This document shows positions 2,379 to 32,770 of a stretch of DNA of 64,000 nt, in pieces; the first letter of the stretch is position 1; each line of letters opens with the position of its first letter. The stretch lies in assembly GCA_044892525.1 (NCBI GenBank), contig CM097885.1:17672001-17736000 (forward strand), read 5' to 3'. Under the pieces are notes generated by a model. That model worked only from the letters and a program-made list of their open reading frames with translations. It did no database searches and was not told where the DNA came from. Position numbers and translations under genes: made by a program. The DNA is from Schmidtea polychroa (taxonomy: Eukaryota).

Positions 2379-2798
2379 TTAAAATGTCTGTGAAAGTCTA
2401 GCAGACATAATTTTCCAAATTGGAGAATACACATCATTATTATCAACTTTATATCCTAGGATTGCAATTGTTATATACCAATTTTCATTTTCTTTGAAGC
2501 TGATTTCATCAAAGGAATCATAAAATCTTGCATATCGGTTGTTGAAAAAACCATGATGATTACATGATAGATTCGTATTCAAACGTTTGAAAACCTCATC
2601 AATAGATTTAATATCTATCATTGAAAGTGTGCCGGATAAGAATTGAAATTGGGTAGGAATTAGCTTGATCGGTGACACCAATTTCATATTGATTTCTTCT
2701 TTTAAAAAATACATTTTGTAGTTATGGAACATTTGAACAGGTTGTACAAGTTCTGGAAGAACTTTTGGTTTTTCAGTGGTTGAAAATTTCTTTGTCAT
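2379..2798 (-). CDS. Hypothetical protein of Polinton A
   Basis: 139-aa ATG ORF of normal complexity, with TATA-like and CCAAT-like motifs upstream (~2835-2870). Confidence 0.5.
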   Translation of the reverse strand: MTKKFSTTEKPKVLPELVQPVQMFHNYKMYFLKEEINMKLVSPIKLIPTQFQFLSGTLSMIDIKSIDEVFKRLNTNLSCNHHGFFNNRYARFYDSFDEISFKENENWYITIAILGYKVDNNDVYSPIWKIMSARLSQTF

Positions 2799-2973: not shown

Positions 2974-3531
2974 TTATTGTTCATGTTTAAATTCAAGATC
3001 ACGAATAATAATTTTATTTTTGAATAATAACAATTTGTCCATGTCAATACCATAAGATAATGCCATCATTGAACAACCTAATGGTCGCATCTCAGTTGAT
3101 TGGGTAGAAAGCTGCTTAATATCCGCAATAGAACGACATATTATGTCGCAAGGCATTTCATATCCATGTTTATATCTAAATCGACCTGCTTCCATTTGTG
3201 CACGACATACTTGAGATCGATAATCAGGGATCATACCAGTCATAACACCTCCAGTACTTTCAGTAATATTAAACAATTTTGTAGCTGAACTTTTCTCAAT
3301 CATTTTATCTGGAACCTTTCTTTGTGTAGCTACTACATCAGAATTATTGCATCGAATACCCACGGAAATCCGTCCACCAAATAAATTTAATATTAGTTGG
3401 CCAAAAACACCATTAAAGTTATCAGGATCTCTTGGGATCATAAAAATGGAACCATCAGTTTCGTTGGTAGTATTTCCAATTTCCATTGAGTTATCAGATT
3501 CATAAATTTCTTCATTAAAAGCAGCCATCAT
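2974..3531 (-). CDS. PSMA6-like: Proteasome subunit alpha type-6-like fragment inside the 3' LTR
   Basis: TQRKVPDKM, LFNITESTGGVMTGM, FRYKHGYEMP and TEMRPLGCSM match PSMA6 (TQKKVPDKL, LFKITENIGCVMTGM, WKYKYGYEIP, AEMRPLGCCM). Homologous part ~3019-3378, native N- and C-termini missing, first ATG at 3531. Confidence 0.85.
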   Translation of the reverse strand: MMAAFNEEIYESDNSMEIGNTTNETDGSIFMIPRDPDNFNGVFGQLILNLFGGRISVGIRCNNSDVVATQRKVPDKMIEKSSATKLFNITESTGGVMTGMIPDYRSQVCRAQMEAGRFRYKHGYEMPCDIICRSIADIKQLSTQSTEMRPLGCSMMALSYGIDMDKLLLFKNKIIIRDLEFKHEQ

Positions 3532-4846: not shown

Positions 4847-6571
4847 CTAATTCGTTAGTTCTTCCAGAATTGAATATTTGCCATCTAAATGACTCTGAGC
4901 TCCTTGCTCTTCATTAGATGCCTTACTCCTGTGGAGTGGCGTGTCCTCAATTCCTCGAGATGCCCGTAACTCGTCATTGAACATTTCAGTTACCGCAAAA
5001 TAACTCTGAACCGTCCTCATTGATGCGTTTTCATTTAATAATTCGTTGTGTCTTTGCTTACATCCGGTAACCTTGCAGAAAGATTCTTTACGGCATTCCT
5101 TGGCCATGTGATTTCTTTTGAAGCAATTCCTGCACAGTTTCATTTCTTCGATGACTCTCTTCCTTTCTGAAATTGTGAGTTGCTTAAACTTGTCACATTG
5201 GTCTAGGTAATGTTGACCACCACATTCTACACACTCTGATCTATAGCCGTTAGAGTTATTCACCTGTATAACCGTTCCACTTTTAACTCTGCCATTTGGT
5301 TGCCCCGTAAAATGCGTCCGACCTCCTGGATTGAAGCTTTCTCTTTCTCTAGACACACCTTCTACTCTTGGCCCATCATAAGTCCTGGTGCTTGATTGAG
5401 TCCCATACACGACCTCGTTAGTGGACCTTAGGATCTCCGCTTCTTGTTGTATCCATCTTCTCAAATCCTCTATCGTCTCCCGCAATTCCTTTTCTATTTT
5501 CTCTTTCTTCCATTTATACACAAGATCCGTTGTTAACTTGCTCAAACACTTTTGAAAAAGATATCCAGTCTTTAACTCGGTTTCTTTCCCAGTGGATTTA
5601 AATCGCACGGTGACTGTTTCTAATAATCCAACAAATAAGTCTAGATCCTTCAAATCTCCTTCTCGAATTGGCCTGAACTTGTCCATCTCCTCTAACATTG
5701 ATAAATATATCCTTTCATCCCCACCATATATCCTATCCAACTTCTCTTTTGCCATTTGATAAGCCTCTGCCGAATATTCTAGATTTTCAATTAACTTTAA
5801 TGGCTCTCCGTGAAGGTACTTGTGCAGGTGAAACATCTTTTCAACCTCATCACCTTCCGCTTCGTCAACACACGCCGTAAAAGCTGCTTTGCATGGTTCG
5901 TACTCTTTCATCTTGCCTTCAAAAACAGGGATTGTAATTTTCTGTAGACTTTCCAGTTTTCTTTTATGCACGGAATTATTCTTCTTGAAGGTATCATCAT
6001 TCACATTTTCCTTCTCTTCCATAACAGATTGATTTGCTTTTCTTTCCATCAATGCCCCAATCATTTGATGTTTTTCCTCGATCTCTTGCAGGTCTTTATC
6101 TAAGATTGCAGTGATGTCCAATCTTTGCAATTTTTTACTGATCGTTCTCAGATCCCCTAATTCTTCATCTAGACTCTCCTTTTGATCTTCATATTCCGCC
6201 AACCATTCGCTAACATCCTTCCCATTTATATCATTGAGAATCTTGTTTCTCAATCTCGTTAATTTTCCTTTTTTCATTCTCTTTTTCCACAGTCCTTCTT
6301 CTAAAATCTCTTCGTCATTGCCCCCGCACAGCCTGAGTGACAAATGAAGTGTCGAACCTACTTGTATCCTATAATCGTTCAATCTTCTTCTATTTTCTAA
6401 TTGCTTTCCTGCGTGTACTAACATTTGATAATTTACCGGAATTCCTTCTTTGTCCTGGATTTTTCCTTTTACCTTTTCAATTGTGTCGTTCCATTCAACA
6501 TCAAGAGTAATTGTCTTACCAGTAAGAGTTTTGACAAATATTTGACTTTCCCATCGCAACTCAAAACCCAT
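4847..6571 (-). CDS. Ubiquitin-Gag fusion (ubiquitin-like domain + BEL/Pao-type Gag with zinc knuckles)
   Basis: [14 protein letters not shown]...[12 protein letters not shown] (6544-6320). Then a coiled coil, a DUF1759-like region (KITIPVFEG...[14 protein letters not shown]...[10 protein letters not shown]) and Cys/His motifs [27 protein letters not shown] and [14 protein letters not shown]. First ATG at 6571. Confidence 0.9.
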
Positions 6572-6845: not shown

Positions 6846-7433
6846 CTAGCCCCCTGAAGGGAACCATGCTCTGCTACCATGTTCATGTTTAAATTCAAGA
6901 TCACGAATAATAATTTTATTTTTGAATAATAACAATTTGTCCATGTCAATACCATAAGATAATGCCATCATTGAACAACCTAATGGTCGCATCTCAGTTG
7001 ATTGGGTAGAAAGCTGCTTAATATCCGCAATAGAACGACATATTATGTCGCAAGGCATTTCATATCCATGTTTATATCTAAATCGACCTGCTTCCATTTG
7101 TGCACGACATACTTGAGATCGATAATCAGGGATCATACCAGTCATAACACCTCCAGTACTTTCAGTAATATTAAACAATCTTGTAGCTGAACTCTTCTCA
7201 ATCATTTTATCTGGAACCTTTCTTTGTGTAGCTACTACATCAGAATTATTGCATCGAATACCCACGGAAATCCGTCCACCAAATAAATTTAATATTAGTT
7301 GGCCAAAAACACCATTAAAGTTATCAGGATCTCTTGGGATCATAAAAATGGAACCATCAGTTTCGTTGGTAGTATTTCCAATTTCCATTGAGTTATCAGA
7401 TTCATAAATTTCTTCATTAAAAGCAGCCATCAT
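6846..7433 (-). CDS. PSMA6-like: Proteasome subunit alpha type-6-like fragment inside the 5' LTR
   Basis: Second copy (one K/R difference). Reads through the LTR end and PBS to a stop at 6846. Confidence 0.85.
   Translation of the reverse strand: MMAAFNEEIYESDNSMEIGNTTNETDGSIFMIPRDPDNFNGVFGQLILNLFGGRISVGIRCNNSDVVATQRKVPDKMIEKSSATRLFNITESTGGVMTGMIPDYRSQVCRAQMEAGRFRYKHGYEMPCDIICRSIADIKQLSTQSTEMRPLGCSMMALSYGIDMDKLLLFKNKIIIRDLEFKHEHGSRAWFPSGG
6862..6879 (-). promoter_or_regulatory. Primer binding site, initiator tRNA-Met
   Basis: TGGTAGCAGAGCATGGTT immediately after the 5' LTR, complementary to the animal tRNAi-Met 3' end (...CUCUGCUACCA). Confidence 0.88.
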
Positions 7434-7775: not shown

Positions 7776-8179
7776 TAAATAATCAAAAAAACGTGGCAAT
7801 GATTTAATAATACAGAAACGCCAACTCAATAAATTCAACATAAACGCGATATATTTCAATTGTACAACAATCTTCGTCAGGCAGCAATCTGGATAATCAA
7901 TAATAAGACATAAAATATGCAATATCTAAACAAATTAACTAATAATAATCATCTCCAAACTGTATCAAAAATTTTAAAAAAATACAAAAAAAAATATTTA
8001 AAAAAAAAACCAAACCATATTTTACATGGCCCCACATACATATTATTTTAAAAATGAAATTTTAATTTAATAACATTCAACATTCAACATAAAATTAACA
8101 AATTTAAAAAAAATTACATAGTTTACAAAACACAAACATAATTATACCACAAACACGACTCCCAACCTTCAACCTTCAA

Positions 8180-8516
8180 TTACTTAAACACATTCAAAAT
8201 CTCCGTGGAACGGGCAACTTGATCATTTATTTTTGGATTTAAATATCTAATCAACAATGCCTCACAAGTTACTCGTTCCCAATAATTACTTAAACCTTTT
8301 GAAATAATTTTAAAATCAGAGATACCTATTTTTTTACTGACACATTTCCTAACATGATTACTAATATTAGTCAATCCTTTTGGTCGACAGTGTTCAAGAA
8401 CTCGGGTGCAGAGATGACGGGCAGTCTCTCCAATGTATGTGGCATTACACCCATTACATGAAAATTGATACACGAGCTCAGAACACAAACCAATTGGCGT
8501 TGGACATTTACTAGTA
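8180..8516 (-). pseudogene. Penelope-like element 3' fragment, GIY-YIG endonuclease
   Basis: LVYQFSCNGCNATYIGETARHLCTRVLEH...SNH...EALLIRYLNPKIN is the PLE-type GIY-YIG with CxxC. Confidence 0.88.
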
Positions 8517-8743
8517 TGCGTACGTCTGAATCTGAGGTACCTATTGATCCTGAGGAAAGTAGTATGTTAAATTCGGAAAGTGACAAGAATCGATCCAATC
8601 GCATGGAGCCGAAATATGTGTTAGTATTGCCTTATTCTGAGGGTTTCAGAGAATTTAAACATAAAATTCTCAAATATGTAGACAAGGATCAATTCAGGAT
8701 TGTTTCCACTTCTTGCAAAGTTAGCAGTATGTTTACTAGTAAA
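8517..8743 (+). pseudogene. Inverted upstream piece of the same Penelope ORF (RT-EN linker)
   Basis: KYVLVLPYSEGF...VSSMFTSK joins in frame to TSKCPTPIGLCSELVYQF once the segment is re-inverted. Confidence 0.7.
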
Positions 8744-8887
8744 TCCCAGAGAAATGTATTGATAATTCGAAAATCCAGATTCTGGTTTCATTGTAAATTA
8801 AGTTTGGGATTATTGCAACATCTCGATCTTTGAGAATATCATACATTTGCGGGTAATAAAAATACAATCTTTCCAGTATTATTGCAA

Positions 8888-9300
8888 AGTAGTGAGAAGT
8901 GAGGAGTATAAACCAAGCCAAAAATGCAGTATTACGTAATATCTGTATGGGTACCATGGGGGTGGTTTGGTGTTACATAATTTTGTAAAATTACGTAATC
9001 ACACATAAAATGACGTAATTATATTTTTTGATTACGTTATAATTGATTTTTTAAATTTACGTCATAATTGACCCCCCATGTAATAATTGACCTTTGACCT
9101 CTTACATAATAATTAACCTTTGACCTCTTATATAATAATTATACTTCATTAGAGTAGTGAGGAGTATAAACCAAGCCAAATATCCCTGGAAAAAATTCAA
9201 TACATTTTGATAGAGTAGTGAGAAGTGAGGAGTATAAACCAAGCCAAATATACAGTATTACGTAATATTTGTATGGGTACCTTGGGGGGTGGTATGGTGT
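8888..9300 (+). mobile_element. Orphan Polinton-type terminus in three direct copies
   Basis: AGTAGTGAG(AAGTGAG)GAGTATAAACCAAGCCAAA at 8888, ~9153 and ~9214, followed by TTACGTAA/TGACCT-rich sequence resembling other TIRs here. Confidence 0.6.
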
Positions 9301-9545
9301 TAATAATAATTATCTGTAAATATTATCTGTAAATAATAATAATATGATAAATACAATTAATATTAAAATTTACCATAATGTTCATGTTCTTTCATGGCTG
9401 CTATAGCTGAACTTTGAATATTGTACATGGTTTAAAAATGATAACTAAACCCAAAACATTTTGTTATAAATAATCATCAGCCAATTAGATTTCGACCAAT
9501 CAGAATCATGCATTTCAATGGCATTGAATTTGCAATGATAAATAA

Positions 9546-10010
9546 TTAATTAAGTGATAATAAAAAATCTAAAAATTCTTTTCCTTCAATTATTGATTTA
9601 ATTTCAGATATGATATTATCAACTATACATTTGTAATCAATATTTTTTATTCCAAGAATTACTATCTTACCGCTAGCTAATATATTTACACACATAGGGT
9701 TATATTTTATATATCTCAAAGCTGGAAATAATTCTGGTTCGTAAAAGCATGGTATTAATTTAGCCAATTTATTTAAATTACAAGAAAAACCTATATCGGA
9801 AGTTACGGTTATCGATTGTATTTCTAAATCATAAACATTATATTCACTAGCTTTGATTATTTCCTTACACCCCATAATTCTATATTTACCAGTTTTGAAA
9901 TATATTATTGGATATTTTTTACTTCTATTGATAAGTTGTTGCGGTTTCCCCATTGGAAATACCATTTTTGATACATCAGCTTTTGCCCTGTAATTTATAT
10001 TTGAAAGCAT
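9546..10010 (-). CDS. TBP-like: TATA-binding-protein-like protein of Polinton A
   Basis: Two TBP repeats: IYFKTGKYRIMGCK, then IQSITVTSDIGFSCNLNKL...YEPELFPALRY...VNILASGKIVILGIK (compare TBP YEPELFPGLIY...LIFVSGKVVLTGAK). Confidence 0.85.
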   Translation of the reverse strand: MLSNINYRAKADVSKMVFPMGKPQQLINRSKKYPIIYFKTGKYRIMGCKEIIKASEYNVYDLEIQSITVTSDIGFSCNLNKLAKLIPCFYEPELFPALRYIKYNPMCVNILASGKIVILGIKNIDYKCIVDNIISEIKSIIEGKEFLDFLLSLN

Positions 10011-10118
10011 TTTAATGAAATAATTATAAAAACTCTGTTATATATATATAGTTATTTTAAAACGGAGTTCATTTAAATTATCAATATAAACAATAATTAT
10101 ATAGTTTAAATTTAAAAA

Positions 10119-10757
10119 ATGGAATTACGAAATGATGCAGTATACCAAATCGTTGGTCCAAGTGGTAGCGGAAAAACATTATTTGTTTGTAAAGTACTAA
10201 AATCAAATTTGTTCAAAACAAAATTCAACAATATTTATTGGCATAGGGGCGCCGATGAAGAACACGAATTGGCGCAATCAAGTCTCTGTCAGTTGAAAAA
10301 CATGAAAATAGTAAAGGGTTATGATAAAAACTGGTCAAGTCGTTTGAAAAAAGATGATGTCATCATTATCGGTGATTTGTATCAAGAAGCCAATAAAGAA
10401 ACGGATTTTAATAATTTATTCACAAAAATCAGCATACATGTTGGAGTAACAGTTATTTTCATAACACAAAATCTATTTCATCAAGGTGGTGCACATCGAA
10501 CACGTAATTCAAATGTACAATATTTAGTTATTTTCAAGAATCCTAGAGATGCAACTGTCATTGATTTTCTTGGACGACAAACATACCCTAATAACCGTAA
10601 TTTTCTTATCAATGCATTTCAAGATGCTACGAAAATACCTCATGGGTATATATTTTTCGATTTCACACAACAATGTCCTGATGATATACGGGTAAAAACA
10701 GATATTTTCAACCCAAAAGGTGCCATGGTTTATAAACAAAGTTCAAAACAAATTTGA
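10119..10757 (+). CDS. Polinton DNA-packaging ATPase (A32/FtsK-HerA type)
   Basis: Walker A GPSGSGKT, degenerate Walker B (IIIGDL), FITQNLF and YLVIFKNPRD motifs. Confidence 0.92.
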   Translation: MELRNDAVYQIVGPSGSGKTLFVCKVLKSNLFKTKFNNIYWHRGADEEHELAQSSLCQLKNMKIVKGYDKNWSSRLKKDDVIIIGDLYQEANKETDFNNLFTKISIHVGVTVIFITQNLFHQGGAHRTRNSNVQYLVIFKNPRDATVIDFLGRQTYPNNRNFLINAFQDATKIPHGYIFFDFTQQCPDDIRVKTDIFNPKGAMVYKQSSKQI

Positions 10758-10770
10758 AAACATATAAATA

Positions 10771-11265
10771 ATGTTTTCAAAAACAAGGATATCGAGTAAA
10801 AAACAACCAAAGGTTCCACCAACAACTAGTTATACTCCATCGAAAGAACTTATTACAGAAAATTTTGCTGCAATGAATCTTATTTCGAAAAATCCTAAAC
10901 CTAAACCTAAAAGTAAAACCACTAAGAAAGTAAAAGTTGTTAAAAATCATCGGAGTTTCCCGTTTTTCAATACATTGTTAAAGGCAACAAGTATGAAAAG
11001 AAACAGTATTTTGCAATCATTTCAAAATTATGTTGTCGATGATTTACTCGATATTATACTTAAAGTAGTCAAAGGCAAGATTAAAATCAGTAAATCTAAA
11101 AAGCAATTATTGAGTAAACATAGGAAACCTTTGCTATCATTAGTAAATAATAAAAATCGTCAACAAATGAGAAAAATTATATATAAACAACAAAGGGGAT
11201 TTATCGGTGCATTGATACCTTTAGCAATAGCATTATTAGGTGGAATAATAGGAAGTCAATCATAA
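10771..11265 (+). CDS. Basic Polinton virion/core protein
   Basis: K-rich, with a C-terminal hydrophobic RGFIGALIPLAIALLGG, positioned between ATPase and integrase. Confidence 0.65.
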   Translation: MFSKTRISSKKQPKVPPTTSYTPSKELITENFAAMNLISKNPKPKPKSKTTKKVKVVKNHRSFPFFNTLLKATSMKRNSILQSFQNYVVDDLLDIILKVVKGKIKISKSKKQLLSKHRKPLLSLVNNKNRQQMRKIIYKQQRGFIGALIPLAIALLGGIIGSQS

Positions 11266-11326
11266 ACAATGGGTGTTAATCCTTCATTACCAGACATTAA
11301 ATTTAATATTAAATCTTCTTACTGTA

Positions 11327-12465
<1,139 letters not shown>

Positions 12466-13234
12466 ATTTATATCCTTTTTTTCCAAGTAATAGTTGCCCG
12501 CTTATTCATCCGGATAATCAAGCCAGTAAATTCATGGTCAATCTCCAGAATCCGATTTCTTTAAATGGTGACTGAGAAGTTGCACTGCAAGATTTTACAT
12601 TCGTGTACAATACATTCCCATTTTATAGTCAATGTAAGATTGATTTCAAAAGGAATGCTATGAAAACATGTAGTGGTATCTTTATTATCAGTAATTATGA
12701 TAAAACATATCATATTCCGAATCAAATATTAGATCCGCATTGCTCTATGTTTTACAAGGATGGATTAAATATCAGTTGTGATTTTAAACCATTTACAATA
12801 ACATTCGAAACTATTGAAGATGCCAAACGATTGGGTTGCAATAAGTTGAAAAATGAAGTTATGGAAACAGAATACTTATTACGCTTTGATCTATTTGAAG
12901 CAAAGTGTAATGAAAGAAGAAATCAAAATATCAGTGTCGTATAATAATGAAGTTGAAGAATCATTCACCTTTGCTGACGAATTATATATTGATAAACTTG
13001 ATGTGTTACTTAAATATTTAAAGTACAATTGTTCACACATATTTAAAAGTTTGGACATTGTGAAAGATTTAAATGTAACTTAAAGTTTGAATGATGACAT
13101 TTGTGAGGTTACATTTGATAAAAATTTGACAAATACACTTGGATTAGAGAAGCAGCAATATCGGGAAAAATCGGCTGGTATACGTAAACCAAGAATACTT
13201 GAACATCATCAACAAATGTTCATATATACTAATA

Positions 13235-14270
13235 CAGTAGATTTCGCTTATAGAGAACTTGCTTAAAGAGAACAAAATCGGTTAAAGAGAATTTTTTGGT
13301 TTAAAAACGGCATTTACCCCAATTTTTCAGTGTAAATGTTCTCTTTAACCGATGATCGGTTAAAGAGAACAATTTTTTATTTTGGGTTTATTTTTTTCGA
13401 AATACAGTTTATTTTAGACAGTAAACATATAATTTAATTATTTTTGTTTTAAAAAGGTAATTGATTAAATGGTAACCTGATTAAAGGTTATTTGATTAAT
13501 TGAAAATATTATTTTACTTAAAAATTTTAGGCCATAATGAAATCAAGTTCTAGGACAATTCTAACACTCAAACAGAAATTTGAAATCATAGCACTTTTTG
13601 AGAAAGGAGAAAGCCAAGCATCATTGGCCAGAAAATATAAAATATCACCTTCATCAATATCAAACATTTGTCACAAGAAAAGGGAAAAAATACTTGAGGC
13701 CTACAGTTCCAGGCCTTCGTCAACCAAGAAACTGAAACAATCTTTTCATGATGATTTAGATATTCAGTTAAGGCATTGGTATTTGCTGCAACGATCCAAA
13801 AAGATTCCCATTAACAGTGTATTACTTATTGAAAAAGCTGATCAAATTGCCAAATACCTAAAGATTCAAGATTTTACTTGCACAATGAGTTGGATCCAAC
13901 GTTTTAAAACTCGGCATTCTCTTGTTTTCGGATCTATTTCTGGAGAAGCTGGTGATGTAAATAATGAGTTGGTGGCGTCGTGGCTTAAAAATGAGTGGCC
14001 GGAAATTAGGAAAGGTTATGGTAACAAAGATATTTTTAACTGGCCATTTACAAGAAAGTTTAATAGCAATTGAATCAGATTTGGAGAAGATTTTACTCAA
14101 GAAAAAAACCAGGCAACGGAAAATAACTGAGTTTATTTTCAAAAAATAAATGTGTTATGTAGTTAGTAAAATTTTTTGAATATTTTTAAAATTATCCTTA
14201 TTAAAAAGTATCGGTTATAGAGAACATTTTTTCAAGTCCAAAAAATGTTCTCTTTAAGCGGTATCTACTG
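13235..14270 (+). mobile_element. Tigger/pogo-type DNA transposon, internally deleted
   Basis: TIRs CAGTAGATTTCGCTTATAGAGAAC / GTTCTCTTTAAGCGGTATCTACTG with a TA duplication. Confidence 0.92.
13537..14073 (+). pseudogene. Tigger transposase N-terminus (CENP-B-type HTH domains), DDE core deleted
   Basis: LTLKQKFEII...LARKYKISPSSISNI and WIQRFKTRHSL...SGEA. Truncated at DIFN and joined to a C-terminal tail. Confidence 0.88.
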
Positions 14271-15930
14271 TATTATTGAGCCTATAATTGTTGGCGATTC
14301 AAGTGTTCCTCTATTGAAATCGGTGTGGATTGGAAAATATGAACATGGTGAAGTTGTCAATATAAATATAGATAATCCCATGTATTTATCAATTTCAAGC
14401 TCATGTATAAACAATATAGAAATAAATATTCGTGACGATAGTGGAAAACTTATAAACTTCCCAAAAGACTCAAAAACTCATTTGACACTACATTTTCGTA
14501 AAGTAGATGGCTAATTCTGATATTATTAGTATGTATAGTGATAGCCAATCTGGCGGTGAATTACCATATTTTATTGGTAAACAGTACGGATCAGGTTGGT
14601 TAAAAACAATAGGGAGATTTGCACTTCCTATTATTAAACGTATTGGTAGTTTTGGCATGAAAACTTCTAAAGACGTGATTATGAATGAACACAAAATATT
14701 ACCATAGTAGATGGATAGGGCATCGCTAGATCAGGGGCCCGCTAGATCACATACCCCCCCCCCGGACGGAAAATTTTTAAAAAATTTTCTAAGTCTAAAA
14801 GTACATTTTTTTCAAGGTCAAATTTTAAACAAAGACATATGACTCATCAAGGTCATTTAAACAAAGACCATGACTCATCAAGGTCATTTCAAGGTCATTT
14901 AAACAAAGACCATGACTCATCAAGGTCATTTCAAGGTCATTTCAGGGTCGCGTGACTCATCCAAGGTCATTCCCAAGGTCATATGACTCATTGTGATGAC
15001 TCATCAAGGTCATATTATTATTTTTAAAAAATATTATTTTATTATTATTATTCAAAATATTATTAGTGATCTAGCGGGCCCCTGGTTTTCGTTTGCCCAA
15101 ATGTTTTCGTTCCAATCATCGATAGCTTATAGCTTTTATCGATAGCTTATTTTGAAGCTTAGTGCAAGACCTTTCGAATGAGCTATTGAAGGTATCATCA
15201 TCATTAATATTGACAAAGTTATTAACGTTTTCCCGAGATCATTTTCAAGGTCATTTGACTATTTTATTATTATTTTTCAAAATATTATTTTTTCAAGGTC
15301 ATATTATTATTTTTCAAAATATTATTTTTTCAAGGTCATTTTTTTTTCAAGGTCATTTTTTTTCGAGGTCATATTTTAAATTTTAAATTTACAGAGTTGC
15401 CGTCAACAAATATTATTCAACGATAGCTCATTTTAAAGCTCGATCCAAGACCTTTCGATTGAGCCATAGAAGGTATCATCATCATTAATATTGACAAAGT
15501 TATTAACATTTTACCAAAAATCATTTTCAAGGACATATAATTATTCAAAATATTATTAGTGTTCTGGCGGGCTCATGGTTTTCGTTTGCCTAAATGTTAT
15601 CGTTCCCATTATCCGAATTTATTAATCGATAGCTTAATTTAAAGCCCAGTGCAAGATCTATCTACTGATATATAAATATTATTATTATCATTATTATAGG
15701 CAAAATTATTAACGTTTTCCCGAGATCATTTTCAAGGTCATTTGACTATTTTATTATTATTTTTCAAAATATTATTTTTTCAAGGTCATAGTATTATTTT
15801 TCAAAATATTATTTTTCAAAGTCATTTATTATTTTCAAGGTCATTTATTATTTTCAAGGTCATTTATTTTTTTCAAGGTCATTTATTTTTTCAAGGTCAT
15901 TTATTTTCTCAAGGTCATTTATTTTCTAAG

Positions 15931-15985
<55 letters not shown>

Positions 15986-15992
15986 CTATATA

Positions 15993-16441
15993 CTCTGAGT
16001 TTATCCGACAAAATATTCTGTCCCCCTATGGGTAATGCTCACAAGGGTACTGATCACCAGGGTACTGCTCACACTCGACAAGTCACATGGGTATTGTTCA
16101 CAAAGTTACTGGTAAAAATATTCAAGACAAAACTTTAACAAAGAAATTATACTTTAAATATACACTAAAATTTATTACCACATTCACATTCATCATCTCC
16201 ACAGTTCATAACATTTTCAACAACATGATCTATACAATGTTTACTGATTGTTGTTATATAGTTGTAGGTTGATAATGCTTAGTACCTGGTTGTTGTCGGT
16301 TGTAAGTACTTAGTATCTAGTTGTTAGCTGGTTGTTGGTATCTAGTATCTAGTAAATGGGTAGGTGGGGGTTGAGTGTTAGCAATACCCTTACGACCAGT
16401 ACCCTTAGGGGGTCAAAACATCCTGTCGGATAAACTCAGAG
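15993..16441. mobile_element. MITE-like unit within C
   Basis: Inverted ends CTCTGAGTTTATCCGACA flanked by TA. Confidence 0.6.
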
Positions 16442-17499
16442 TATATATAATAAAACTGATCAACAATAAGTATTTATTGAATGCGATTTTTACATTGCAA
16501 TAATAAGTCAGTAGTAATCAATTTAAAGAAGAATGTTTTGTAAATTAGAATTCTATAGTCTTTCATTTTAATTTAAATTATCATCAATCCCACGTAGTGA
16601 TGAGTTGACAATTATTCATTTTTTGATGAAAATCCTCATTTTTGTTAAATTTAGACATTTTGAAAAGGTTTTTCTACTGATTGTAATTAAACATATTTTG
16701 AAGACAGATAAAAAATTAATTTAAAAATCATTTCATAAAATACAATGAAGAATATTTAGTTGATTGTAAGTAGTTAGTTGTAAGTATCTGGTTGTTTGAG
16801 AGTTAGTTAGTACGAGGTATCATGTTGAAAGTATTTGGTATCTAGCTGTTTGTTAGAAATACATTGTTGTAAGTATTTGATTGTAAGTATCTGGTTGACC
16901 TTTTAAATTTTGACTTAAACATATTTGATTGTAATAATTTACAAACAAATAATGTTTTCCCACATCCCTTGGATCAATAATTTGATATACTGTATCATTT
17001 CTCAATTCCATTTTAATTAATTTAATCTATTAATATTATTTATATTTGTTTTAATTAATTGTTATACATGAATAAAAAATATTCAAATATAATTACTTTA
17101 TTAATGCTTAGCAATATAAAGTATTATTTTTATTATTATTTTTATTAATATTATTTTATTATCATTATTATCATTATTATTATTTGTAAAATTTGCATCT
17201 AAATTTTCTTTAAAAACTATTTCATTAAAATTTTCATTTCTCAAAACCTGACTATCATTCAAACTTTTTTATAATAGATTAAAAATTATTACTTTAATTA
17301 AAAATTTATGTCCATAATTTACTTTAATTTAATTATTACTATCAATTCTCATTCTCTTTCTAAATTTATTAGTTAGTTTTAAAATTTACCCTTTTCATTT
17401 ACTATTATTTTTATTAGTAGTGGTTAATTGAAATCTGTCTTTGAAATTAATTTAATATAAATTTGTATTTAATTTTGACTTGGAAAATTATTTCATAAA

Positions 17500-17712
17500 A
17501 ATTTTACACTGATTGAAAATAAGCTAACGAAAAAACTGAACGATGTTAAGAGAAGGTATTTAACTTGTTCAATTTGTAAAGAAAATCAAGTTTCGGTTTT
17601 GTATTTACCGTGTGGTCACGTAATTGTTTGTTCTAAGTGTCACGAGAAGAATGTTCACAATTGTCAAGCCTGTTCAACACTGATTAATGAATATCATACT
17701 ATATACATGTAA
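17500..17712 (+). pseudogene. IAP/MDM2-type C3HC4 RING finger fragment
   Basis: Manual translation: CSICKENQVSVLYLPCGHVIVCSKCHEKNVHNCQACSTLINEYHTIYM*. Not in the ORF track and no clear start. Confidence 0.8.
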
Positions 17713-18269
17713 GTTCTCAATACAAATCAATACAATATCAAAGTCAAATGAATTATTACCATACATAATGATGGTACTATAATGTAGAAAATTTTCAAAC
17801 ATTGAATAATATGAAATAATCTTGGTAATTAAATATATTGGGCGCAACTAACAAATGGTGATGATATATTCTTAGGACAATTCTGTGACTATTTTAGGAA
17901 CTAATTAACAATTTATATTGAGGAGAACATTTAACAAATTCATAGAGATTTTATATACTTTTCTGCGAAATATCATTTGGAGATATTAATTAGTAAATTC
18001 TTTAGCAAGAAACATGTTTATTTCACATTCAGCAAAATTATATTCAATTTATGCATGTTTGATAGAAAAACATGATTATTTTAGAAATCAATTCATAGGT
18101 ATATTAAAAGCAAGATCATTTAAGTCTTAAATTTTAAGATATCATTCAGTAAATGAATTCTTAGATAATATAGTATTTTTGAGTATTTTTTAGTTAATTT
18201 TTAAAATAACAGTATTTTGATGTATCAATAAAGACAATTTGGGTAGCATATTGCAAGTTCTTATATATA

Positions 18270-20100
18270 CTCCGAGTTTATCCGACAAGATATTCTGTCC
18301 CCCTAAGGGTATTGCTAGCAAGGGTACTGCTCACATTCAACATGTCGCAAGGGTATATTAATTAGTAAATTAAGGTACATGTATATCAGTTAGAAATTAC
18401 TAGGTAATTTAGTGAGATGATCAGAAATTCGTGAATATTTGAAATGTAACTTTACACTTATGTTGAGCGATTAATTTATTGGTTAATTTTTTAGACATTT
18501 AAAGCAAAAGGTAATTTATTCATCTAATGTTCGTTACAATAGTTAATATAATTTATATAACTTCGTGAGAAATACATAGTCTAATAACAACAACATTCAA
18601 CAATTCATTTGGAGTAAATTTCTGTCTTTGTTCGAGGCAAAAATATTTAAAGGAGTCAGAGTCATAATAGATCATTTGGTTATCATTTAACCAAATAAGG
18701 TGCTCATTAGTTAGAAATACATGTTCAATTCTTTTTTAATTTAATATTTAGCAAAGGTAATTTAGCACAATATCATTTATCCACCTGATAACAATATTCC
18801 TTCAATAGATTAACTGATATTCAACTTATGTAATTTCTGGAAATATAATTAAAATCATAAATTTCCTTCATGAAAGTTAAATTTTCTTTAGTTGTCGATG
18901 TTCAAATCTTTTAAGTCAATATTTTTGTTACCGTTACTTCATAATGAATGTCCGTCTTTAACATGTTAAATAAAATAATTTAAAGCAATAACCTTTGATA
19001 TCAATTATCTCTAAAGATTTCAAATATTTCATTGTCAAAACCAAGTAAATTAGTCATTAACCCTAAACACTTTAATAAATCCTGGATAATTAATAGACTA
19101 TTTCCGTTGAAACATTTCCAATAAGAACATCACCCATTTAAATATTCAAAACATTTCCACCCTAACCGATCCCTCACCAAATATTTCTACCCCTGTAAAC
19201 ATCCAATCGAATATATCCCCCCTAAAATACTATATATTCACAACTTAACCGAACCCTAACTAAATCCAACCAACTATAATTTACCCACTTGAGCCCTTTA
19301 ATATATCTTAAAATCTATAGAAAATTCTTCAAAATATGAATTTTATTTAATTGTTACAGATATTTTTCTATTGAAATAATTTAGTAGCTAAATTCAAAGA
19401 GTCCACTAAAAGATCAAAATAAATATTTAACCACATGTATCATCAAATACCTAACTAGAGATGATAATATTTCATTGATTCATCATAATTCTTCATCGAT
19501 TCAACTAATTATAACAATTATAACATGATATATCTTTTAAACTAAATCACAATTTTCAGTATATTGTACAATAATTTTCAAGTAGATTTCAAATATATCA
19601 TTATCGTGAAAAAAAAATTTAGCTGGTTTCAACTATAGATTTTCAATATTTTAAAGTTCATCAATGTGTAAATATTCTTAGAAAAATATATGAAAAAATT
19701 ATTTAGTCAAATTCAATATCATTACAAAGTCATCATCATCAAATTTATCCTATCACTTGATTATTAGCCTCATTAAAAATTAATTTTTATCTAAAATTTA
19801 AAAACTAGTCAATAAATATAGCAAATTATCAAGAAATTAATTAAATTTATCTTAGAATTAACACTAAAATTTTTAAATATTCTTTCAATTAACATGAAAT
19901 TCACAAAAAATGTTAGTAAAATCCCGCTAACTCTAAAAAAAAAAATTACCAATGAATTTAATGCCAAATAATAACCAAAAATTTGCCTAAATAAAATCAT
20001 TAAAACACACCAGTACCTTTACGACCAGTACCCTTACGACCAATACCCTTACAAGCAGTACCCATAGGGGGAGAAAATATGTTGTCGGATAAACTCAGAG
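18270..20100. mobile_element. Second MITE-like unit of the same end family within C
   Basis: CTCCGAGTTTATCCGACAA ... TTGTCGGATAAACTCAGAG, TA on both sides. Confidence 0.6.
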
Positions 20101-20950
20101 TATATATAATAAAACGAATTAACAATAACTCCATCAAATTGAATCAGTCAAATTATCACAAATTTTAATGAAAAATCTTATTCTAAAATGGTAAGCAGCG
20201 TAAAATCGAAAGATAATTTTAATAACACAGAGATAAATAATATTTTGAAAAATAATAATAAAATAGTTAAATGACCTTGAAAATGATCTCGGGGAAACGT
20301 TAATAACTTTGTCAATATTAATGATGATGATACCTTCAATAGCTCATTCGAAAGGTCTTGCACTAAGCTTCAAAATAAGCTATCGATAAAAGCTATAAGC
20401 TATCGATGATTGGAACGAAAACATTTGGGCAAACGAAAACCAGGGGCCCGCTAGATCACTAATAATATTTTGAATAATAATAATAAAATAATATTTTTTA
20501 AAAATAATAATATGACCTTGATGAGTCATCACAATGAGTCATATGACCTTGGGAATGACCTTGGATGAGTCACGCGACCCTGAAATGACCTTGAAATGAC
20601 CTTGATGAGTCATGGTCTTTGTTTAAATGACCTTGATGAGTCATATGTCTTTGTTTAAAATTTGACCTTGAAAAAAATGTACTTTTAGACTTAGAAATTT
20701 TTTTTTAAAATTTTCCGGCCGGGGGGGGGGTATGTGATCTAGCGGGCCCCTGATCTAGCGGTGCCCTATCCATCTACTTACCATCCCTAAAAACAAATGC
20801 TTTAGCTGAGTTAGGGAAGGTTCTACCTGGAGTTGCTGGTATGTTTCAAAGAGATACGCCTCCAGCCCCAGCCCCAGCTCCAAAACGTAAATGACATGGA
20901 ATATTGCGTATAAACAAACGAATGAAAGGACATGGAACTATATTTGCAAA

Positions 20951-21260
20951 ATGATTTGTGGTAAATCCGAATTATGTATATTTGATAGACCATCGCGTCA
21001 AGCGGTAATCGAATTTGGGGCCTTTGAGGAAGCCTTTCCTATGAATTCAATTACTGATAGTAGAAATGATATCGAGTTTTATATTAATGGTTCACAAACT
21101 GAATATTTAGATTTGAACGATACTTTATTGACTGTTCAGATCAAGGTTGTAGATAAAGATAGAAAAGTTTTGGATGCCAATGCGGATGTATTACCAAACA
21201 ATTTCCTGTTTCATATTCTGTTTAAAGATGCAGTGTTGGGATTTAATAATATCAAGATTG
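20951..21260 (+). pseudogene. Polinton A major capsid protein, N-terminal fragment
   Basis: KSELCIF...IEFYING...YLDLNDTLLTVQIKV...PNNFLFHILF is a typical Polinton MCP start. Truncated after ~100 aa. Confidence 0.82.
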
Positions 21261-21468
21261 AGAACATTGGATAGCTATATATTTGAAACCTAGTAATATA
21301 TTCGTATTCGATCCTATGGGTTTCTATTATCCTGCTTTGTTGATATCAAAACTGCAAACAATTGGGAAACCTAATGTATATAATAAAACTATGTTTCAAA
21401 ATCCATTGACTCAAACATGTGGTCAACACTGTTTGACATGGTTGTTTTATAAAAAATTTGATGGTTAA
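21260..21468 (+). pseudogene. Polinton A adenain-like cysteine protease, C-terminal fragment
   Basis: EHWIAIY...FDPMG...FQNPLTQTCGQHC (H, D, Q, C catalytic residues). Confidence 0.85.
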
Positions 21469-22959: not shown

Positions 22960-23382
22960 TTGAAATATCAAAACTTTTGTAATAGTCAATATCATAATGA
23001 CTGCGATGATATAATGGAAAGATATTATAGTCATAAATATAACGGTGTCACCTACATCCTATGCCCTAAATGTGAGGTTATTGAAGTTATAACGTATAAG
23101 GAATTTTTTAATAAGCATAGACTCCATCTCCAACAATTTAAACCTTCTAAGAAATCTCTTTTCTATAGCTTATATAAATCGTTTGTTAACAATAATAATA
23201 TCAACAACAATAATAATACTAACAACACCAATAATAATAATGATATAAACGAAATAAATAATCTAAAAGATCAAGTAAATAAATTAAATGATCAAATGAA
23301 TAATCTAATTAATATGAATAAAAGAAAAAATAATGAAAAAATAAATTTAATACCAATTAAAAATCTAAAGTTATTGATGTAA
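22960..23382 (+). CDS. Hypothetical ORF with a CxxC/H motif, possibly detached 5' part of pPolB
   Basis: LCPKC...NKHRLH followed by an N-rich tract, directly upstream of pPolB, non-ATG start. Confidence 0.35.
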   Translation: MKYQNFCNSQYHNDCDDIMERYYSHKYNGVTYILCPKCEVIEVITYKEFFNKHRLHLQQFKPSKKSLFYSLYKSFVNNNNINNNNNTNNTNNNNDINEINNLKDQVNKLNDQMNNLINMNKRKNNEKINLIPIKNLKLLM

Positions 23383-23564
23383 TCACAATAAGTGATGATG
23401 ATGTAATAATCAACATAAGTGATGATGAAATTGTTAATAATAATAGTAGTAGTAATATTTATTATAATAATGGTATTAATAATAATTATAATAATATTAA
23501 TCAAATAGGTTATGGTGTCGTAGATGTCACCAGTGATTTAAATAATAATCATATTATATTAAAA

Positions 23565-25257
23565 ATGGACGTTTCGTCTTTAGATTTAAAAACGGTCTCT
23601 GTACCAGACATTTTAATAAATAAATTAAATTTATATGTAAATAAATTAAAATCATGTAAAATTCAATTTTGTCTAAAGGTGGAATTTATAAAAGATGATG
23701 AGTTACAATCTTTTGTAATCTCGAATTCCGCCCGAGTTTGGAGATATACATTCATTGACGAAGGTATTGCTCGTTTAAATGAAAAAATAATTAAAATTAA
23801 TGAGAAAGGTAGTAATTGGACTATCAATAAAATCGAATACATAAGCTTTGTTCTGACTAAATTTGCTGAAATAAGTCGTTTAAGTGGTAGAAGCTTTATT
23901 GAAACCCCAAAATCTTTAAGAAACTTAAGCTGTCTCATTAATGCAGTTAATAATGACCAATTCTGCTTTTTGTATAGTTTCTTGTCAATTATTAAATATG
24001 ACAGTATAAATAGGCAATATAGAAATCGCCCTAATTCCTACAATCTTTCTGATATTAAATTTGATTCTAATGATATGCCGATGAAACTATCAAATATAAG
24101 TAAATTTGAACAACAAAATCCAGGTTATAGTATTAATGTTCTTACTTACAACGAAAAGGCTTTGATAGACATTTCCGATGAAGATGCAGTTATGAAACAT
24201 CCCTTTATTGATATAATATACAGGAGTAAGATAGTAGGAGCCATACCTATCAATTTATTATTAATTGAAAAGAATGATAATTATCATTATCTTGGAATCA
24301 CAGACCTAAATAGATTCCTTAATTGTAGGAATAGTTCAATCACTCCTGTTAGGATTTGTAGTCAGTGGTGCCCTAGGTGTTTAAACGGGTTTAGGAATGA
24401 TGACGCTTTTAATAGACATAAGGGTCTTTGTGATAAAAATCAGCTTGGTACTACCTTGTACACATTGCCTAAAAATAAATATTTAGAATTTACTGACTGG
24501 AGTAAAACAGTTACTCCTCCGTTTGTTATTTACGCCGAATTTGAGGCTATCTTACCTAAAGACACTCTCTATTTTCAACGTCATCTACCTATTTCTGCCG
24601 GTATACTTTTTATTAATAATTTTACGGGAGTAAAAATTTATAAGTCGTTTACCGGTTTAGATTGTGTCGATCAATTTCTTACTGAAATTGAAATGATAGG
24701 GAAATATATTGTAACTCCTTATTATTATAAAAATTATCAAAAGAAAATGATAATTACAGATGAACAACAATTAATGTTTGAAAACAGTACATCCTGTTAT
24801 TTGTGCAATAAGCCTTTAGTTAGTCCAGTTAGGGACCATGATCATTTTACCGGTCTATATCTTAGTGCCGCTTGTACAACTTGTAATCTGTCGAGGCAAA
24901 TTAGACATATCCTTCCTGTAGTATTTCATAATTTAAAGGGTTATGATCTGCATCATATCTTGAAATTTGGCCTTTCAAAATACCATTCATGGAATATTAG
25001 TTGTATTCCTTTAACCAGCGATAAATTCCTTAGTCTTTTTGCTAGGATTGACTCATTAACTGTTAAATTTATAGACTCATCAATTTGTCAGCGAGTCTTT
25101 GAATAATGCTGTCAAAACTTCATCATCTTTACCCTTGACCGAATCAGAATTTCAGGGTACAATAATAACTGCAAAGGGAATTTTTCCTTATGATGCCGCA
25201 ACTTCATTAGAGGTTTTGCATAACACTCATCAGTTACCTCCTATTTGGAAAGATGTG
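23565..25257 (+). pseudogene. Protein-primed family B DNA polymerase of A, 5' part
   Basis: GSNW, INAVNNDQFCFLYS, FVIYAEFEA, EndoVII-like VRDHDHFTG...CN, VVFHNLKGYD, FIDS, KGIFPY. Frameshift near 25080, cut by element B. Confidence 0.92.
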
Positions 25258-25565
25258 AGTAGTGTGTATCTATCCCTAACGACCACAAGCCTCCCAGCTG
25301 TTTTCATGTTTTATACCTATTTTTTTCCCGTTTTATACCTATTTTTCCCCCATAAACGTAAAAAAAAAACACTTAAAACCTTAAAAACCTATATCTTTTA
25401 ATTTCTTTATTCCGAAGACATTTTGCTTTCAAAATAAAAACTTAAAAAACAACAAAAATATTAAAAAAACAACACAAAATGTTAATAAAACAGGGAAAAA
25501 AATACTGATAAAACTATGAAAAACGTTTGTCGGCTTGCGGTCGTTAGGGATAGATACACACTACT
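25258..25565. repeat. Left TIR of B, itself bounded by a 34-bp inverted repeat
   Basis: AGTAGTGTGTATCTATCCCTAACGACCACAAGCC ... GGCTTGCGGTCGTTAGGGATAGATACACACTACT. Confidence 0.92.
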
Positions 25566-25875: not shown

Positions 25876-28800
25876 ATGAATTGTAATATTTGCAATAAAG
25901 TTTTTAAAAATAAAACAGGATTAATTTCTCACTATAAATCGAAAGCTCACTTACTAAAAGAAAATAATCTTAATGACACAAATTCAAAAGTTTGTACTAA
26001 ATGTAAAGGAAGATTTCTACATTCTGGATATAATAAACATTTTGAAAATTGTATCGGGAAAAATAGAGAAATATTTACATGTCCTCATTGTAACTTTTCA
26101 ACAAAACTAAATTTCTATTATTTAAGACATTTAAAAGAATGTAAAAATAAAAAACAAAATTCTGACGTTGAAGAATGTCATTCAGAAGGAGAACCTGATC
26201 ATGTTGAAAGAGAAAAATACAACTGGGATGATTTTAATCATATAGATGAATTTCAATTAAAAATTAATGGACCTGCAACCCCTGGAGAATATATAAGGAG
26301 AAATAAAAAAAATATTAAAAATTCTTTCACTGAAGCTTTAAAAAATTATAAACCAACAAGGTATAATGTTATAAAATATAAAATTACAATCAAAGCAAAA
26401 TATTGGAGAGGACCAGAAGAAAAGACAACTCCTTTAGATGTTGAAATTGGAATACCTTTTAAATATTTATTTTCAACTAGAGGATTTAATAAAAGCATCA
26501 AAGAAATAATTCAAGCAGTAGAAGCAAAACAAGAAGAGGTTGAAAATGAATTAGGAGATTCAAACTTAGTATTCAACTCTTTCCAAACTTTAGTGATTGA
26601 TTATTGGAGAGGATTACCACCTAATCCTAAATCTTATATTCAAACACCCTTTAGATCTAGGGTTGTTATAAATGTACAGAATAAGGATAACAAATGTTTC
26701 ATGTGGTCAATACTTGCATATTTACATCCTCAAGCTGAAAACCCTCAAAGAGTTTCAAAATACAAACAATATGAAAATGAATTAATATTTCCCAAGGGAT
26801 TCACACACCCAATGAAACTAGAAGACATTCCAGAATTTGAAAAACTAAATAATCTTAAACTTAATATTTATGAACATGTTAAAGGATGGGGACATGGAAG
26901 GAAAGATATTATTCCAATTTATATTTCTGATAGTGATAGCACGAGGGAGATATATCTTTTAATCTTGGAAGAAGGAAATAATCAACATTATGTTTTAATA
27001 AAAGACTTTCAAGCTTTTACATCACCAGAGAATCCAACTAGTGGAGGAGGAACATGTAAAAGATGTCTTCATTATTCAACAACTAAAAACTCTATGATTA
27101 AACATGCAAGATTTTGTGAAAAAGATGATCCAGCTTTAATTAGAATGCCTACAGATCCCAGGATGTATTTTAAAAACTTTACAAATTTATTACAAACATT
27201 AGGAGTTGTCTATGGAGACTTTGAATCTATAAATCGTAAACAAGATATAATTATGCAATATTTAAAAATAATAGAAAAATATAAACTCATGGATGAATGG
27301 AAAGCCTCTAAACAGAAGATGAAACCAGAGAGGATGAAAGCCTTTCTAAGAAAAAGAAATAAACCTAATAGTGTTAAAAAAACTAAACAATTACCATCTG
27401 CTTATAAATTATTATTTAAAAGTAATTATAGAATCTAGAGAATATGCATTTCAAGGAACTTCAGAAGATGTTTTAAATCATTTTACTAAAAGTATAAATG
27501 ATCTAGAACATGAAATATTTAAAATATTAAAAACAAAGTATCCTCAAAAAATTTCTAATCAACAACAACAAGAATATGAAAATACTTCCAACTGTTGGAT
27601 GTGTAAACAAGACATTCTTCCTGATGATAAAGTTATAGATCACGATCATTTAAAAAAGGAAAATAATTATCGAGGAGCAGCCCATAGAAATTGTAATCTT
27701 AATTGTCATACTCCTAAATTTGTACCAGTTATATTTCATAATCTTTTTGGTTATGACATACATCTATTTATTAAACATTTAGCAGAAAATGCTAAAAACT
27801 CTTTCAAAGTTATAGGACTTACAAAGGAAAAATATAAATCAGTTGAATATGGAAAATTAAAATTTATAGACTCGTTAAACTTTCTCAAATGTCTCTAGAT
27901 GGAATAGCTAAAACAATGAAAGCAGAAAATTTTAAAATCACTCGAGAATTCTTGGAAAAAAATAATATCCCCCAGAAGAATATCCTACATGCTTAGCAAA
28001 AGGAATATATCCCTATGACTATGTTGATTCATTTGAAAAATATAATGAAACAAAATTACCAGAGAAAGAAGATTTCTATTCCCAACTTCAAAAATCTCAT
28101 ATTACAAATCAAGAATATTCTCGAGCAAATAAAATGTGGGATCTTTTCAACTGTAAAACTTTAGGAGAATATACAAGTATGTACTTATCCCTAGATGTTT
28201 ATATTCTAGCAGATTGCTTTGAAGAATTTACAAAGTCTTTTGTTCTTAAACCTTATAATTATATAACAGCTCCTTCTTTAGCTTGGGATACTATGTTATA
28301 TACCATTTGGACTTCAGATCTTCCAGAATCTGATAAAATTATAGATCTTTTAACCGACCAAGATATGTTTAATCAAATTAAAACAAACATTAGAGGAGGA
28401 GTATCTTCAGTAATGGGGAATAGAGAAATAAAAGCTAGAAATGCAATAACTACTAGCCGAAGAATCTCTAAACACCCTGATCCATATATAAAACTTAACA
28501 ATGAGGAACTAAAAGAAGTATTAGAAGGAATGAAAAATCCTCTATTTATACTTTATATAGATGCAACAGCTTTATATTCAGGAATTATGACTCAATATTT
28601 ACCAATGAGTGACTTTCAAGAAATATACTCCTCTGAAGGACTTCCAGAAATAGAATGCCCTCCAGAAGAATATTTAAAGACTCTTATGAATGAAATACTT
28701 TCAACTCCTAAAGATTCTCCAATAGGATACTTTGTAGAATGTGACCTCGACTACCCAGATGATATAAAATCAGGAACAAGACATTTCCCTTTAGCTCCTA

Positions 28801-32768: not shown

Positions 32769-32770
32769 TT

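Follow-up and report, generated by a model that had tools for sequence, protein, structure and literature searches.

A divergent TATA-binding-protein homologue in a Polinton lineage, a candidate late-promoter factor, and a box shared by the lineage's packaging and structural genes

The Polinton element and its TBP-like gene

The 64,000-nucleotide stretch of Schmidtea polychroa DNA analyzed here (the window) contains a broken copy of an A-family Polinton that has taken in several insertions, including a B-family Polinton, and in which a gene for a TATA-binding-protein (TBP) homologue is still open. This TBP-like gene occupies 9546-10010 on the minus strand and is unbroken from ATG to stop, as expected from a sequence-only reading of the window, which had described an intact, intronless ORF of 154 amino acids. 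Its product has a complete lobe 2 and a lobe 1 that lacks helix H1 and most of H2. The gene stands head-to-head with that for the packaging ATPase, whose ATG lies at 10119 on the plus strand, and the spacer between them is 108 nucleotides long, again as described.

In the element's gene order, an SSB-like and a TBP-like gene, which both point left, precede the genes for the ATPase, a core-like protein, the integrase, penton-like, pX-like, and capsid-like proteins, the protease, and PolB. In the left arm of the window copy, a 139-amino-acid SSB-like gene (2379-2798, minus strand) encodes a protein predicted to have an OB fold and to bind single-stranded DNA; the likeness of this stretch to the copy with which it was compared is only 80%, and it may therefore belong to a sister subfamily. 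On the plus strand, the A32-like packaging ATPase (10119-10757; Pfam match below cut-off) is followed by a basic 164-amino-acid ORF (10771-11265), a putative core protein that we label pVII-like from its position, and by an RVE integrase (11327-12441; rve match at an E value of 5e-7, narrowly under the Pfam cut-off) that is broken in this copy, with a frame change and an ATT repeat. A putative minor capsid (penton) gene (12411-14505, plus strand) is also broken, split at about 13235-14261 by a CENP-B/Tc5-type transposon. The ATG of a pX-like gene follows at 14507 (plus strand); at 20951-21444 (plus strand), a deletion has fused the 5' part of a putative major capsid gene with the protease gene's 3' part; and PolB begins as a broken 5' part (23014-25258, plus strand) and resumes at 39409-40927, past the nested B-family Polinton. 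PolB, the ATPase, and the protease were identified by similarity among the window and the other loci and are ordered between the terminal inverted repeats (TIRs); the capsid, penton, pVII, and pX labels reflect gene order and weak similarity. In the first of the two clades that carry TBP-like genes (clade 1) the putative major capsid protein has no Pfam match, and in clade 2 it matches Capsid_N at an E value of 0.007; the B-family candidate matches DJR at 1e-26.

A search of the genome for the TBP-like gene yielded 4109 candidates, of which the best 150 were scored. All 150 are essentially full length and 95-100% identical, and 148 are free of internal stops, figures that are biased toward intact copies because these were the best matches. 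The gene is thus carried by at least 150 copies of the A family and is not peculiar to this one. Among 30 loci that were fetched (one the window itself and one an identical duplicate), the ATPase start is head-to-head with the TBP-like gene in 28; residues 43 and 111 set 3 of the 30 apart from the others, and as the window copy is one of these 3, its own TBP-like protein may be impaired. Six copies were obtained with wide flanks, and three of them (c029, c022, and c003) run cleanly from TIR to TIR over about 15 kb, with TIRs of about 620-760 nucleotides and, in 3/3 checked, 6-bp target-site duplications; the ends of the window copy itself are not cleanly delimited. At least three further subfamilies in this genome carry TBP-like genes, about 50-58% identical, with the head-to-head order kept, and loci chosen by ATPase similarity had the gene in six of six cases. 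Two TIR-bounded B-family copies gave no TBP-like match.

Several other features of the window deserve mention in their own right. The B-family Polinton, without TBP, is present twice (about 25876-38167 and 54400-64000), the first copy being nested inside the PolB gene of the A copy; 145 scored copies of its ATPase are about 100% identical, which indicates a very recent burst. Between the SSB-like and TBP-like genes, an ORF at 4847-6571 fuses a ubiquitin domain to a DUF1759/zinc-knuckle Gag-like product, flanked by proteasome-subunit-like ORFs at 2974-3531 and 6846-7433. A short Cys/His-rich, RING-like coding stretch (17520-17712) was noticed by eye within the insertion at about 14700-20780. 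A segment 56 kb upstream (L001, G000:C1:17624007-17627468) is 100% identical to window positions 8049-11510, a local duplication.

The SSB-like gene belongs to a family of its own, comprising the window gene, members at L032 and L040, and 23 more ORFs, and is a conserved neighbor of the TBP gene. Its structural model (pLDDT 89.7) best matches ASFV CP312R, the phage Enc34 SSB, and T7 gp2.5 at middling Z scores of 6.8-7.2, so that on the model this neighbor is likely an SSB; a search of the ESM Atlas with it gave no lead.

Fold, DNA-facing residues, and ancestry of the TBP-like protein

The proposed homology to TBP is well founded. Residues 62-125 match Pfam PF00352 at an E value of 7.8e-13, which exceeds the curated cut-off, and a sequence search of the PDB returned 35 distinct sequences at E ≤ 1, all of them TBPs or TBP fusions. 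An AlphaFold2 model built from 24 homologues (pLDDT 92.8) gave 44 Foldseek matches at E ≤ 0.001, every listed one a TBP entry, and VIA-align placed 141-146 residues, from both lobes, on TBP structures at rmsd values of 2.5-3.6 (best alignment: Z 11.6, rmsd 2.9, 141 aligned), so that both structural comparisons return TBP. Sequence searches clearly detect only the second TBP repeat, and it is the model together with profile comparison that bears out the description of two repeats of which the first is shortened. In the first repeat the strands are kept; the model has no helix H1 between the strands at 2-10 and 25-28, and the profile comparison shows, in clade 1, a 15-residue deletion spanning helix H2. 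The fold occupies residues 1-146 of 154. The protein is a member of the TBP superfamily (PF00352) that lacks several canonical TBP features.

We compared 19 clade-1 and 14 clade-2 sequences with 11 cellular TBPs, using window numbering, and found fixed differences at N6 (V in cellular TBPs), P23 (F), Q25 (A), R44 (V), M46 (T), S66 (N), T68 (V), R99 (I), C/S107 (V), and N109 (L); A97 is also fixed differently in both clades. By contrast with these, N4, F38, F95, P96, and position 111 hold the cellular residue in most family members. We take the alignment columns of the fixed changes to face DNA, and R99, C/S107, and N109 to correspond, in yeast numbering, to the TBPm3 altered-specificity sites I194, V203, and L205. 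Among the four canonical intercalating Phe positions, position 23 is Pro in 19/19 clade-1 and 11/14 clade-2 sequences, and Phe is kept in the family at the other three (38, 95, and 111). The central Asn pair is likewise incomplete, N4 being kept and position 66 being S or T in 32/33. The C-lobe glutamates are retained almost without exception (E91 in 32/33, E93 in 33/33). The basic N-lobe H2 surface is deleted in clade 1; in clade 2 the helices are kept but the basic patch sequence is not. Mutation of yeast I194, V203, and L205 gives TBPm3 its altered specificity, according to the accessible text of PMC1636458. The accessible part of PMC7221094 describes the C-lobe glutamates of TBP as binding TFIIB and the N-lobe H2 surface as serving TFIIA, Mot1, TAF1, and Brf.

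The family extends well beyond this genome. A protein search found thirty homologues at 39-57% identity (one at 95%), and in a profile search 56 clusters scored E ≤ 1e-30, a number that rose to 613, cellular TBPs among them, when the limit was relaxed to E ≤ 1e-10. Among the best 80 of 127 metagenomic relatives listed, 42 have a Polinton core gene on the same contig, and in 21 of the 24 metagenomic contigs of at least 4 kb Polinton core genes adjoin the TBP-like gene. The place of the latter is not constant: it may precede the ATPase or follow either the exonuclease or a PLA2-like gene. Other genes seen near it in these relatives encode a ubiquitin-conjugating enzyme (L039:225-719), a dual-specificity phosphatase (L032:4008-4316), and an LRR protein (L065:1918-3327). 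The ratio ω is 0.046 in a set of 12 sequences and 0.093 in a set of 9, against about 0.03 for the ATPase; these values are approximate, pairwise dS being saturated in 36/66 and 25/36 pairs, respectively. The TBP-like gene is a stable element gene under purifying selection.

In a 57-row tree, 37 family sequences stand apart from 11 cellular TBPs and 3 host paralogues with an SH-aLRT of 99; the one viral outgroup, an NCLDV TBP (L031), together with L196 and L108/L110, also falls outside the 37-row family in what is a quick tree with long branches and a midpoint root. Because the family lies apart from host TBPs, the origin of the gene appears old. A functionless passenger, that is, a retrocopy of the host TBP gene, might be suggested by the lack of introns and by the existence of intronless TBP paralogues in the host. 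We ruled this out as scarcely credible given an ω below 0.1, the separation from host paralogues in the tree, the hundreds of 50%-identity clusters that match the profile (cellular TBPs included), and best tblastn matches to host TBP-family loci that are either short or of about 25% identity. Such loci number at least six in the host (L151, L152, L153, and L154-L156), three of them divergent and apparently intronless, and none has Polinton structural genes nearby.

TBP-like genes occur in two ATPase clades that are separately supported (98/99 and 100/97), and the union of these two TBP-plus-box clades has no support in the ATPase tree. Comparison of subfamilies L002 and L142 gives a dS of about 2.9 for the TBP gene and about 0.6 for the ATPase (amino-acid identity, 57% versus 88%), a contrast in sequence divergence suggesting that elements have swapped the TBP arm. 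A second, more canonical TBP is encoded at L196:2443-2976 (minus strand), on a Polinton-like contig and head-to-head with a capsid-like gene; the words TATAAAAGG and AATAAAAGGG lie upstream of its neighbor genes, and it looks like an independent capture. Atypical TBP-like genes are also carried by L102 and L108. The contigs L187-L201, which are Polinton-like, were binned into prokaryotic MAGs and are probably eukaryotic contamination.

The spacer and the YATAAACR box

The sequence-only reading had drawn attention to a TATATA run in the spacer between the TBP-like and ATPase genes. The run is there, as (TA)6 at 10039-10050, yet it is weak evidence of a signal: when this 88% AT spacer is shuffled with its dinucleotides preserved, TATATA arises by chance in 49% of the shuffles (the complete (TA)6 in 0.15%). 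Its length varies among copies (27 spacers have 4-6 units and the 28th has 45), and it is absent from the spacers of subfamilies L148, L149, and L159; on these two grounds we rejected it as a conserved spacer signal. Lying 29-40 nucleotides before the ATG of the TBP-like gene, it is possibly, from its sequence and position, that gene's own canonical TATA box. What is conserved when the spacers of four subfamilies of this genome are aligned is ATATAAA(C/T)AA, about 34 nucleotides before the ATPase ATG. A conserved upstream element therefore does exist, but its sequence is ATAAACR and not the TATATA run. The head-to-head arrangement also holds within this genome's subfamilies but is not general, since the ATPase and TBP genes are on the same strand in 28 of 30 metagenomic loci.

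In the window element the box recurs, on the plus strand, ahead of one cassette gene after another, and it often falls within the end of the gene before. No other word of the spacer is as well conserved across subfamilies as the copy at 10085-10092 (TATAAACA), which lies 34 nucleotides before the ATPase ATG. Further copies lie at 10731-10738, within the 3' end of the ATPase gene and 40 nucleotides before the ATG at 10771; at 11261-11268 (CATAAACA), 66 nucleotides before the integrase ATG (11327); at 12391-12398 (GATAAACA), preceding the putative minor capsid gene; at 14406-14413, 101 nucleotides before the pX-like ATG (14507); and at 20909-20916, 42 nucleotides before the ATG of the putative major capsid gene (20951).

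The box was found first in the four genome subfamilies and was then tested on metagenomic loci that had played no part in its discovery, 223 of 287 records being kept after dereplication. At positions -60 to -25, measured like all box distances to the ATG and not to the transcription start site (TSS), ATAAACR is present before 68 of 87 dereplicated genes of the ATPase/structural type: ATPase (19/23), core-like (14/14), PLA2-like (9/11), penton-like (8/13), capsid-like (6/10), and exonuclease (12/16). In this interval it is rarer before integrase (4/15), pX (1/7), and protease (0/5) genes, where it often lies further out, at -61 to -106. Between -70 and -15 there are 68 occurrences on the sense strand and none on the antisense strand, against 2.8 ± 1.6 in shuffled sequences (maximum, 8 in 200 shuffles), and a de novo count of 6-mers ranks the ATAAACR core first (70/87 genes versus 3.9 expected). 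The box typically lies about 37 nucleotides before the ATG, with distances peaking at 31-45 and mostly within 31-55. Among 78 boxes, the core is preceded by T (55), C (19), G (3), or A (1), and the last base is A (65) or G (13), hence the consensus YATAAACR. Coding sequence contains 21 of 68 boxes, in two different frames. The family's TBP genes differ from their neighbors, having the box in 1 of 54 cases and TATAWAW in 26 of 54, versus 6.3 in shuffles.

Could the box instead mark the 3' end of the gene upstream, as a poly(A) variant or a stop-codon context? NATAAA resembles poly(A) variants, and in 14 of 60 cases an open frame upstream ends at the TAA of the box. We nonetheless regard this as very improbable: the box is kept in the head-to-head spacer, although that strand has no gene end there; of 27 gene ends ahead of a TBP gene, 26 lack it; AATAAA shows no enrichment (10 versus 11.5); and whereas the distance of the box to the ATG has a peak, that from the stop upstream ranges widely, from -71 to +387.

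The box also keeps company with the TBP-like gene. In 23 TBP-bearing loci it stands at -100 to -25 before 81 of 95 core genes, leaving 14 of the 95 without it, and in 11 loci in which TBP was undetected it precedes none of 26 core genes, though 10 of the 11 are partial contigs and a TBP gene could lie outside them. These 11 comprise 10 contigs selected by ATPase and one B-family copy; the Fisher p value of 1e-16 for the co-occurrence is overstated, as the loci are phylogenetically non-independent. The contig controls were drawn from 15 MAG-binned contigs, of which 10 served as negatives, L187 and L196 were kept as TBP-bearing, and L193 (a near-duplicate of L192) and L197 and L199 (no usable ATPase ORF) were dropped; ATPase scans of viral contigs and of a phage collection for TBP-less controls gave no matches. 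L187, the nearest of the ATPase-selected contigs, has both a TBP-like gene and the box, and L196, with its canonical-looking TBP, has 2 core genes, neither of them preceded by the box. The box is also missing in front of the L108 ATPase, and in L102 it precedes 1 of 4 other ORFs on the same strand. B-family elements contain a comparable total of ATAAACR words (10-12 versus 16 per 15 kb), though not at gene starts.

Who, then, reads the box? One possibility is that it does act as a late promoter but that its reader is a host factor, of the forkhead type or a TBP paralogue, or some other protein of the element, with the TBP-like protein doing another job such as terminus binding or replication help. 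ATAAACA fits the forkhead consensus; the divergent, apparently intronless host TBP-family loci described above could supply a reader; a predicted SSB gene often adjoins the TBP gene, which would suit a job elsewhere; and shared ancestry could explain the co-occurrence of TBP and box. Against this, the other forkhead words GTAAACA (1/87) and ATAAATA (3/87) occur at shuffle level, the box is strictly sense strand, and 13 of 78 boxes end in G. Many metagenome samples, unrelated to one another, contain elements with this same box, and the B family, which lacks TBP and lives in the same host, does not have it at gene starts. We judge this reading unlikely, though the strongest of the alternatives.

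A proposed late-promoter factor and its relation to known systems

The sequence-only reading had offered two roles, a factor that redirects host polymerase to late or structural promoters and an antagonist of TBP. The shared upstream box, as a sequence pattern, supports the former. The latter, a decoy that titrates host TFIIB or blocks host TATA promoters, would draw on the kept TFIIB glutamates, the replacement of one intercalating Phe and of the second central Asn, and the truncation of lobe 1; it leaves unexplained both the fixed new DNA face common to two clades and the box that stands before structural genes and is absent from TBP-less elements. We consider it improbable, and it fits less well than a late-promoter factor with a DNA face and a matching box. 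Based on these sequence patterns, we propose, with a probability of roughly two in three, that the altered Polinton TBP is a late-promoter factor that binds the YATAAACR box and recruits host TFIIB and RNA polymerase II.

In this model, the host's own TBP would transcribe the TBP-like gene early from an ordinary TATA box, since that gene has a canonical TATA word and lacks the box. Based on the fixed polar residues of the DNA-facing surface, which are specific to the family, we predict that specificity would be shifted toward the box, such that the protein would prefer YATAAACR over TATAAAAG or a scrambled sequence. Given the kept glutamates, host TFIIB would be recruited and, through it, host RNA polymerase II. 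The deletion of the lobe-1 H2 helix would allow escape from control of the Mot1/TAF1/TFIIA type, and, with a minimal promoter of its own for each packaging or structural gene, the element would switch from early to late expression. That all of these parts make up a one-protein late switch in a widespread Polinton lineage, in which a minimal, regulator-insensitive TBP with a re-coded face reads a private YATAAACR box and relies on host TFIIB and polymerase II, seems to us somewhat less secure than the core proposal, if still the better bet. Contigs of one read set (X1, RNA by guess) cover the TBP-like gene, and those of two others (X2 and X4) hardly do so.

No element-borne, multi-copy TFIIB was found (PF00382 had 21 matches among 32 candidates genome-wide, versus thousands for element genes), nor was there a spare ORF of TFIIB size between the element's TIRs. 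The genome does contain thirteen clustered, intronless, divergent TFIIB-like genes of about 301 amino acids (L210:4572-5477, L211:4182-5087, and 11 more on C1 and C3); neither L210 nor L211 has a Polinton cassette around it, and a PolB fragment lies near one of them.

A close parallel to the proposed role is offered by the TBP-like proteins (vTBPs) of herpesviruses. According to the available part of a preprint, KSHV ORF24 has a polar DNA face (bioRxiv 10.1101/2025.08.25.672222), and it reads TATTWAA about 30 bp before late TSSs; beta- and gammaherpesvirus vTBPs read a TATT box at that distance, in the accessible text of PMC6541308. As far as these partial sources go, the Polinton protein resembles the vTBPs (KSHV ORF24, EBV BcRF1, and HCMV UL87) in having a TBP fold whose DNA face is polar at places where that of cellular TBP is hydrophobic, a variant TATA word ahead of capsid and packaging genes, and reliance, here predicted, on host polymerase II. 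It differs in standing alone at 154 amino acids, with no room for a polymerase II-binding N-terminal domain, an extended C-terminal domain, or a further DNA-binding domain; in keeping the TFIIB glutamates, which ORF24 is described as lacking; and in the word itself (YATAAACR), with no six-protein complex of the herpesvirus kind evident. With BcRF1 the structural match is remote (E 0.015, 9% identity), so convergence probably explains the likeness, and by analogy the Polinton TBP likely works like a herpesvirus vTBP from outside that family.

With cellular TBP and TRF the protein shares the two-lobe saddle, 3 of 4 intercalating Phe positions, the first central Asn, and the YEPELFP stirrup; unlike them, it has in clade 1 a lobe 1 without H1 and H2, and some ten DNA-facing positions hold other, fixed residues. 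The TBPs of large double-stranded DNA viruses have a diverged N-lobe, proposed to evade Mot1, and most of them have diverged TFIIB glutamates and are accompanied by a virus-encoded TFIIB, in the available portion of PMC7221094. The Polinton protein is like them a TBP of the virus-encoded type with a diverged N-lobe; set against that same portion, its glutamates are near-invariant, and the NCLDV-type TBP (L031) lies outside the family.

The elements themselves have the hallmarks of Polinton/Maverick elements of the adintovirus-like kind (TIRs, a 6-bp target duplication, PolB, RVE integrase, ATPase, protease, and putative capsid genes) and are unlike known ones in their TBP-like gene and shared upstream box. 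The sequence-only reading held that the Polinton core set has no basal transcription factor, which must be qualified by what is already in print: some polintoviruses carry the transcription factor VLTF3 (PMC11131425), and a figure legend of Starrett et al. 2021, for a map of MELD virus or a relative with an adintovirus-like PolB, includes the label "TBP" (PMC8502044). The accessible text of the latter neither discusses this label nor mentions a promoter motif, and the label may refer to the present family or to another. Our search of freely accessible article text found no description of this TBP family or of the box, and the available portions of 10.64898/2026.10.13.758929, PMC11131425, PMC11161782, and 10.64898/2026.06.19.733378 make no mention of TBP or TATA.

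How do Polintons time the expression of their capsid genes, and do they still behave as viruses? A candidate factor and a candidate 8-bp box make the question of late expression in Polintons directly testable, and the box offers annotators of this lineage a practical way to mark gene starts and late genes. If the proposal is true, the pair would be a natural, orthogonal TBP-promoter system convergent with that of the herpesviruses and the smallest viral TBP system known, as well as a natural experiment in re-coding TBP specificity with the link to TFIIB kept. It would also be evidence that these "transposons" run a staged, virus-like program of expression.
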